Below are positions 59,409 to 59,641 of a DNA stretch of 64,000 nucleotides, piece after piece; the first letter of the stretch is position 1; each line of letters begins with the position of its first letter. A program made the translations under genes and the position numbers. The notes below the pieces were generated by a model, which worked only from the letters and a program-made list of their open reading frames with translations, was not told where the DNA came from and searched no databases. This DNA comes from Trypanosoma brucei. Taxonomy: Eukaryota. The DNA is taken from the NCBI GenBank assembly GCA_000002445.1, contig AL929603.2:1000673-1064672 (forward strand), in the 5' to 3' direction.

Positions 59409-59641
59409 ATAATAATAATAATAATAATAATAATAATAATAATAATAATAATAATAATAATAATAATAATAATAATAATAATAATAATAATAATAATAAT
59501 AATAATAATAATAATAATAATAATAATAATAATAATAATAATAATAATAATAATAATAATAATAATAATAATAATAATAATAATAATAATAATAATAATA
59601 AATAATAATAATAATAATAATAATAATAATAATAATAATAT
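59409..59641 (+). repeat. Long (TAA)n microsatellite, about 78 units, at the 5' edge of the 70-bp repeat array.
   Basis: Direct read of aataataata... with a single 1-nt interruption near 59600. It produces the poly-Ile, poly-Leu and poly-Asn six-frame ORFs. Confidence 0.95.

Follow-up and report, generated by a model that had tools for sequence, protein, structure and literature searches.

The window, by which we mean the whole 64-kb stretch of DNA that was analysed, carries VSG and ESAG1 genes, ingi-type reverse-transcriptase domains and TTAGGG telomere repeats, all of which are traits of the Trypanosoma brucei group. Based on a protein search, the intact VSG nearest to the telomere matches, over its full length and at 100% identity, a T. 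b. brucei TREU927 protein annotated 'VSG, atypical, putative'; a Lister 427 VSG is 77% identical. We infer that the window forms the right-hand end of chromosome 1 of T. b. brucei TREU927. This end of the chromosome reportedly has some 50 kb with genes and pseudogenes of the VSG and ESAG families, and its telomere-proximal VSG is said to be oriented, unusually, away from the telomere; the window shows the same arrangement. The features of the chromosome end outside the tract and its repeat array are the following, with positions counted within the window and the strand in brackets.

7063-9339 (+): ESAG8-like leucine-rich-repeat (LRR) gene, by Pfam
12593-13630, 17420-18796 and 26574-27935 (+): VSG_B-domain ORFs, by Pfam
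20200-21183, 31473-32444 and 39136-40122 (+): three ESAG1 genes, by Pfam
41474-45556 (+): ingi-type non-LTR retroelement, between the ESAG-rich region and the inverted VSG block, by Pfam
~49197-49224, 52566-52606 and 55378-55413 (-): single partial 70-bp repeats upstream of minus-strand VSGs
49497-50912 (-): VSG ORF
53285-54457 (-): fragmented A-type VSG pseudogene
55570-57183 (-): telomere-proximal intact VSG, pointing away from the telomere, by Pfam VSG_B and Trypan_glycop_C
57184-59408 (no strand): non-repetitive flank 5' of the tract, reaching back to the start of the minus-strand VSG
60528-60627 (no strand): assembly gap of 100 N, by sequence reading and regex
63509-64000 (+): (GGGTTA)82 telomere repeats, running to the end of the window, by Tandem Repeats Finder and sequence reading

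Genomic context

ESAG-type genes are multicopy on the plus strand between 7063 and 40122, where they follow no obvious complete expression-site order. The ingi-type element consists of two consecutive ORFs, with endonuclease and reverse transcriptase and then RNase H. Beyond it lies a minus-strand VSG block (49497-57183) made up of three telomere-proximal VSG genes, all directed away from the telomere. The three single minus-strand 70-bp repeats of this region each start with a short T-purine-purine (TRR) run, ATAATAATAATGATAG, with only three or four TAA units. The VSG at 55570-57183 has no upstream 70-bp repeat of its own; a plus-strand TAA tract, the subject of this report, lies 2.2 kb from its start codon (57183). 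The tract sits exactly at the head-to-head junction between the minus-strand VSG array and a plus-strand array of 70-bp repeats.

A segment of about 260 bp is duplicated in the same orientation at about 80% identity (47944-48203 and 58276-58533). The minus-strand ORF over the first copy (47920-48375) has a weak, sub-threshold match to a glycosyltransferase domain (GT_PLOD, E 0.0012), and by this match the segment may be what is left of a subtelomeric glycosyltransferase pseudogene. When the 2.2-kb flank 5' of the tract was searched for a hidden 70-bp unit or for homology to sequence downstream of ESAG1, the sole match was the 80% match to 47944-48203.

On its telomeric side, the repeat array is interrupted by the 100-N gap in the middle of a unit, breaking off after ...GATGATAATTATAATA. 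Neither the full length of the array nor its link to the telomere-associated sequence is thus fixed by the assembly. Stretches of 100 N's have been used for unresolved gaps in 70-bp repeat regions (Hertz-Fowler 2008). Directly after the gap, region 60628-63520 begins with variant telomere-like hexamers, (AGGATT)7, followed by a 2.8-kb, very T-rich block with eight copies of a ~76-nt unit, '...GATGCAGCnGC..TTTTATTATGCGrACCCTAACCCTCCTCCCCCC...', in which an inverted telomere motif is followed by a C-rich tail. A GGGTT-type island lies inside this block at about 62250-62285, and a longer segment is present in two copies about 1.2 kb apart (62111-62263 and 63307-63469). Finally, a 29-bp telomere-derived repeat (CGGGTTCGGGTGTTTCGGGTTAGCGGGTT; 2.4 copies, 63456-63524) leads into (GGGTTA)82. 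No ORF or VSG was found in 60628-63520, and the assembled sequence from 60628 to the telomere holds no VSG ORF. The array is directed towards the telomere, and the nearest VSG lies upstream of it on the opposite strand.

Anatomy of the TAA tract

The tract and the repeats that follow it are made up as follows.

59410-59601 (+): (TAA)64, perfect, by exact regex count and sequence reading
59602 (+): extra A, the sole interruption, in the context TAATAAATAATAA, shifting the triplet frame by +1, by sequence reading and regex
59603-59638 (+): (TAA)12, perfect, by exact regex count
59639-59710 (+): degenerate tail, A/T-rich and TRR, by sequence reading, duplex-stability scan and unit alignment
59711-60527 (+): array of 11 '70-bp' repeats with units of 66-83 bp, by alignment to a 75-nt consensus and core search

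As assembled, the tract contains 76 perfect TAA units over 229 bp with a single 1-nt interruption. The sequence-only reading had put it at about 78 units and about 230 bp, likewise with one 1-nt interruption, and the regex count bears this estimate out to within two units. The degenerate tail 3' of (TAA)12 starts with ATATAAATATAATAATAATATTAATATTATAAATAATAAAATGATCATAATGATGG... / ATATAAATATAATAATAATATTAATATTATAAATAATAAAATGATCATAATGATGGTAATAC..., consists of A and T only up to 59679 and then passes into triplets that include TGA and TGG, with the terminus ...CTAGCA. Tract and tail start together form an unbroken A/T stretch of 271 bp (59409-59679), and Tandem Repeats Finder reports a period of 3 over 59409-59688 (93.7 copies, 93% matches, score 481). 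Since the runner-up TAA run in the 64-kb window has five units, no TTA run of at least five units occurs in the window, and the runner-up pure A/T run there is 42 bp, the tract is far beyond chance and is confirmed as a genuine feature. Its 5' border is sharp, and its 3' end grades via TAAA, ATT and TGA variants into the first core of the array; the change from TAA to TAAA seen in the lone extra A at 59602 recurs three more times in the degenerate tail. Coding potential was rejected, as the ORFs at 59265-59669 (+), 59393-59701 (-) and 59407-59685 (-) are artefacts of AAT/ATA or ATT/TAT/TTA triplets.

The anatomy also bears on whether the length of the tract, as distinct from its existence, is an artefact, which we consider unlikely. 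Slippage in the E. coli clone, slippage of the sequencing polymerase or collapse would account for such an error, and the lone A would then be a base-calling error. The same array is gapped by 100 N 890 bp downstream, gaps in 70-bp regions are typical of Sanger-era finishing, and E. coli hosts are perturbed by AAT/ATT tracts. However, about 280 bp with a unique 5' flank fits inside one Sanger read, and a 5' edge this sharp, a 3' tail that degenerates by degrees and the recurring TAAA have the appearance of a real mutational history. A tract of similar size, (TAA)90, is independently reported in the title of an earlier paper (Campbell, van Bree and Boothroyd 1984), and a collapse would imply that the true tract is longer, not that it is absent. 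In view of the unique 5' flank, the one-read size and the mutational gradient, the existence of the tract in the genome is credible.

Array of 70-bp repeats and register of the tract

VSG transposition has its 5' limit at the 70/76-bp repeats. In the array described here, the conserved core, ...GAGTGTTGTGAGTGTGT(A/G)TATACGAATATTATAATAAGAGCAG..., is repeated in tandem with a core spacing of 66-83 bp. The core GAGTGTTGTGAGTGTGT occurs in 11 copies on the plus strand, from 59713 to 60472, and in three copies on the minus strand of the window. The plus-strand units are 83-96% identical to the consensus, the first unit (59711-59783) being the most divergent (83%, compared with 88-96% for the other units), and the array units match unit sequences in the S1 Dataset of PMC4858185. 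A search of metagenome contigs with the 70-bp core gave no match. Within the array, a higher-order duplication of two units (156/158 bp) spans 59784-60097; because 155 of its 158 aligned columns are identical, it is taken as indicating that the array probably underwent recent turnover or unequal exchange.

Every unit contains, on the same strand, a T-purine-purine run of 6-11 mixed TAA, TGA and TAG triplets in front of the junction at which ...ATAGGA is followed by GAGTGTTGTGAG, in agreement with the earlier observation that 70-bp repeats hold short TAA/TGA runs. In unit 1, the slot of the triplet run is filled by the tract and its tail, and ...CTAGCA is followed by GAGTGTGTCGTGAG, as opposed to the normal ...ATAGGA and GAGTGTTGTGAG. 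The gap of 72 bp between the end of the tract and the first unit is bridged by the degenerate triplet tail, which joins the tract in the same register to the 11 plus-strand units. The proposals that the tract is fused to the 70-bp array, and that it represents the expanded triplet run of a 70-bp repeat, were therefore upheld by the unit alignment, with the expansion placed in the TRR slot of unit 1. Since neither consensus alignment nor core search found a 70-bp unit on either strand of the 2.2-kb 5' flank (57184-59408), the tract forms the upstream, or centromere-proximal, edge of the array, which is also where the sequence-only reading had placed it.

The length of the tract was compared with spacings in expression-site arrays, calculated from the unit start positions given in the S1 Dataset of Hovel-Miner 2016 (PMC4858185) for four arrays of Lister 427 BES1, BES4 and BES7. 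Across 175 spacings between neighbouring units, the median was 81 bp and the 95th percentile 103 bp, and the longest measured 230 bp. Here the first core lies 304 bp from the tract start, which exceeds every one of them; this spacing could mean that something besides neutral slippage maintains the tract. TAA runs of at least eight units are absent from the published expression-site units of Lister 427 and TREU927, an absence that arises by construction, as those units are trimmed to 77 nt.

Duplex stability and strand separation

The nearest-neighbour duplex stability of the tract is -0.82 kcal/mol per step, compared with a window mean of -1.34 (sd 0.09), and by a wide margin the tract is the weakest 100- or 200-bp duplex stretch in the 64 kb. 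The next least stable duplexes (52734-52933 and 49265-49464, 82-86% A+T) lie directly upstream, on the minus strand, of single 70-bp repeats of array VSGs. Judged from calculated stabilities, a helix-unstable flank may be a general companion of 70-bp repeats.

Strand separation was calculated with a simplified SIDD model, a self-written, single-run, AT/GC-only approximation of Benham's model for naked DNA, applied to an arbitrary 5-kb domain (55528-60527). At a sigma of -0.055, the probability of opening reaches 0.98, and 150 of the 150.5 base pairs expected to be open fall inside 59409-59679. With the native tract, the opening threshold is about -0.033. When tract and tail are replaced by a typical 38-bp triplet run, the threshold shifts to about -0.045 and opening moves to an AT-rich stretch about 4 kb upstream of the array; when the tract is reduced to (TAA)9 with the tail kept, the same site opens with a bubble half as large. 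In this model, none of the array's ordinary triplet runs melts, and the expanded tract captures all of the opening. Within this simplified calculation, the tract is the region's predicted main site of stress-induced strand separation, and the earlier statement that it is prone to DNA unwinding is supported both by the lowest duplex stability in the window and by the difference between the two thresholds. Because the ordinary runs stay closed in the model and the expanded tract takes all of the opening, the physically relevant variable may perhaps be tract length rather than repeat number.

Non-B structure had also been suggested, and in the sense of a hairpin or slipped hairpin this part of the claim is not supported. 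When each strand of the tract was folded as single-stranded DNA, no hairpin formed (minimum free energy 0 kcal/mol), and every one of the 200 shuffles gave a more stable fold than the tract (z +4.67 and +3.38 for the two strands). Hairpins, slipped hairpins and cruciforms are thus ruled out by the folding result for both strands. H-DNA or triplex formation is not expected because the sequence is not homopurine/homopyrimidine, the TAA strand mixing T with purines, and a quadruplex is not expected in a tract without G runs.

The predicted opening raises the question of fragility: the tract might stall replication or open in transcription, leading to more DSBs at the upstream edge of the array and so biasing VSG recombination at this chromosome end. 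We regard this as improbable. A break upstream of the whole array is reportedly less suited to trigger VSG conversion than a break between the array and the VSG. Although the tract is the strongest predicted unwinding site, a hairpin-type replication block is not predicted. Additionally, the tract is not set in an intact expression site; since an ingi element and an inverted VSG array lie upstream and the assembly shows no VSG downstream, it is doubtful that Pol I transcribes it at a high level. The break hypothesis for 70-bp repeats is itself decades old (Barry 2012), and the same author proposes a path from (TAA)n instability through replication stalling to a DSB. R-loops have been found to be focused on 70-bp repeats, with the TRR triplets pointed to, and RNase H1 mutants have a stronger R-loop signal at promoter-proximal repeats (Briggs 2018, PMC6292569). 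In a Nanopore assembly, 7 of the 15 expression-site contigs ended within 70-bp repeats. On the other side, according to a 2018 review (da Silva et al.), whether the 70-bp repeats act in break formation 'remains untested' and gene conversion does not need them, and BLISS mapping of BES1 gave 'no clear evidence' that breaks occur inside these repeats (Girasol et al.).

Origin of the tract

Based on these results, we favour the reading, at a probability of roughly 0.78, that the tract is a microsatellite expansion of the TRR segment of the outermost, centromere-proximal 70-bp unit, and thereby one more case of (TAA)n adjoining 70/76-bp repeats, a feature known since 1984-85. Expansion would have come about through slippage at replication or through unequal exchange, in a duplex that is very weak and forms no hairpin, as suggested by the sharp 5' border, the pure 5' 229 bp and the graded 3' end. 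Homogenisation in tandem arrays is as a rule weakest in the edge units, a pattern that unit 1 fits by its divergence. Such a unit may escape the homogenisation that holds internal units at 6-11 mixed triplets, so that its triplet run could grow and stay pure. Under negative supercoiling from an RNA polymerase or a replication fork, the tract would be predicted to open first, and by analogy with the literature on 70-bp repeats in active expression sites, such opening could favour single-stranded DNA or R-loops.

Purely local slippage does not account for the tract lying at the head-to-head junction. A rival reading is a rearrangement scar, in which a telomeric remnant, consisting of the 70-bp array and the telomere, was joined to the inverted VSG array and the junction is the footprint of an old break and its repair at the TAA tract. 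The tract does lie exactly between the upstream side of the repeat-less minus-strand VSG and the plus-strand array, a 70-bp repeat accompanies each of the other minus-strand VSGs, and the glycosyltransferase-like fragment is present in two copies (47944-48203 and 58276-58533). However, no inverted copy of the 70-bp repeat or of the TAA tract was found at a plausible second breakpoint that would give a simple inversion, and the sequence abutting the 5' edge of the tract is without recognisable homology, which leaves such a scar a distinctly doubtful explanation. Simple inversion of the minus-strand VSG block was rejected, as it yields no canonical arrangement.

We hold out equally little expectation for a wider proposal, in which the outermost triplet run would be more than a by-product of slippage: a long pure TAA tract at the promoter-proximal edge would act as the 'melting point' of its array, nucleating opening or R-loops and setting the start of breaks or of conversion tracts, and in which the tract described here would also mark the junction where a telomeric module of 70-bp repeats and telomere was joined to an inverted VSG array via break repair. 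Least probable is a selected element. It would be either a DNA unwinding element that serves a replication origin, or a boundary or insulator that separates the telomeric repeat domain from the silent VSG array. Although the helix instability is extreme and localised and the site is a divergent strand switch, the single 70-bp repeats elsewhere in the window have just three or four TAA units and the Lister 427 expression-site arrays apparently lack tracts so long.

Comparison with known systems

In African trypanosomes, the triplet component of the 70-bp repeats has long been suspected of a part in starting VSG switching. The tract is an extreme natural allele of this component, and with its uniquely mappable 5' flank in a reference genome it could be a handy locus at which to study unwinding, R-loops and breaks. 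On its own, the tract introduces no new kind of element and lends no new support to the break hypothesis; the one small addition is quantitative and comes from the SIDD calculation.

Expanded AT-rich repeats are likewise proposed to perturb replication at the human rare fragile sites FRA16B and FRA10B and at AT-rich flexibility islands. The difference is that FRA16B and FRA10B are kilobase-scale expansions of 33-42-bp units, with cytogenetic fragility demonstrated.

The tract is closer to the TRR component of canonical expression-site repeats, with which it shares register, strand, the adjoining core and the proposed link to R-loops and instability (PMC4858185, PMC6292569). The canonical runs are mixed TAA/TGA of about 20-30 bp, whereas here 229 bp are pure TAA, about 7-12 times longer. 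The same motif was studied in plasmids by Ohshima, Kang, Larson and Wells (1996, JBC 271:16784), who are cited for describing TTA.TAA repeats as 'non-H bonded' (unpaired) in supercoiled plasmids. Strand separation rather than hairpins is also predicted for the tract, by calculation from its sequence, whereas the earlier work was a plasmid experiment.

Runs of (TAA)n in the flanks of intrachromosomal VSG genes are named in the title of Aline et al. (1985, NAR 13:3161), a paper that is cited for variable AT-rich spacing by Hovel-Miner 2016 (PMC4858185). There, TAA runs of variable length reportedly form the variable part of the 70-bp repeat regions, as they do here; those tracts are found at chromosome-internal VSGs, whereas the tract described here heads a telomere-proximal array.

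The nearest known counterpart is the (TAA)90 that lies among tandem 76-bp repeats, upstream of a VSG gene in T. brucei, as given in the title of Campbell, van Bree and Boothroyd (1984, NAR 12:2759). Both are long, pure TAA tracts of similar size (90 units there and 76 here) joined to 70/76-bp repeats in the same species. According to that title, the repeats flank the tract, whereas here they are present on the 3' side only, and unique sequence adjoining an opposite-strand VSG lies on the 5' side; likewise, the Campbell tract is upstream of a VSG and no VSG is assembled downstream of ours. That repeats lie on one side here and on two sides there is a positional difference, not a difference in kind. 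The locus belongs to a published reference genome, (TAA)n beside such repeats has been known since 1984-85, and the tract is a member of this already known class of (TAA)n associated with the 70-bp/76-bp repeats of T. brucei.
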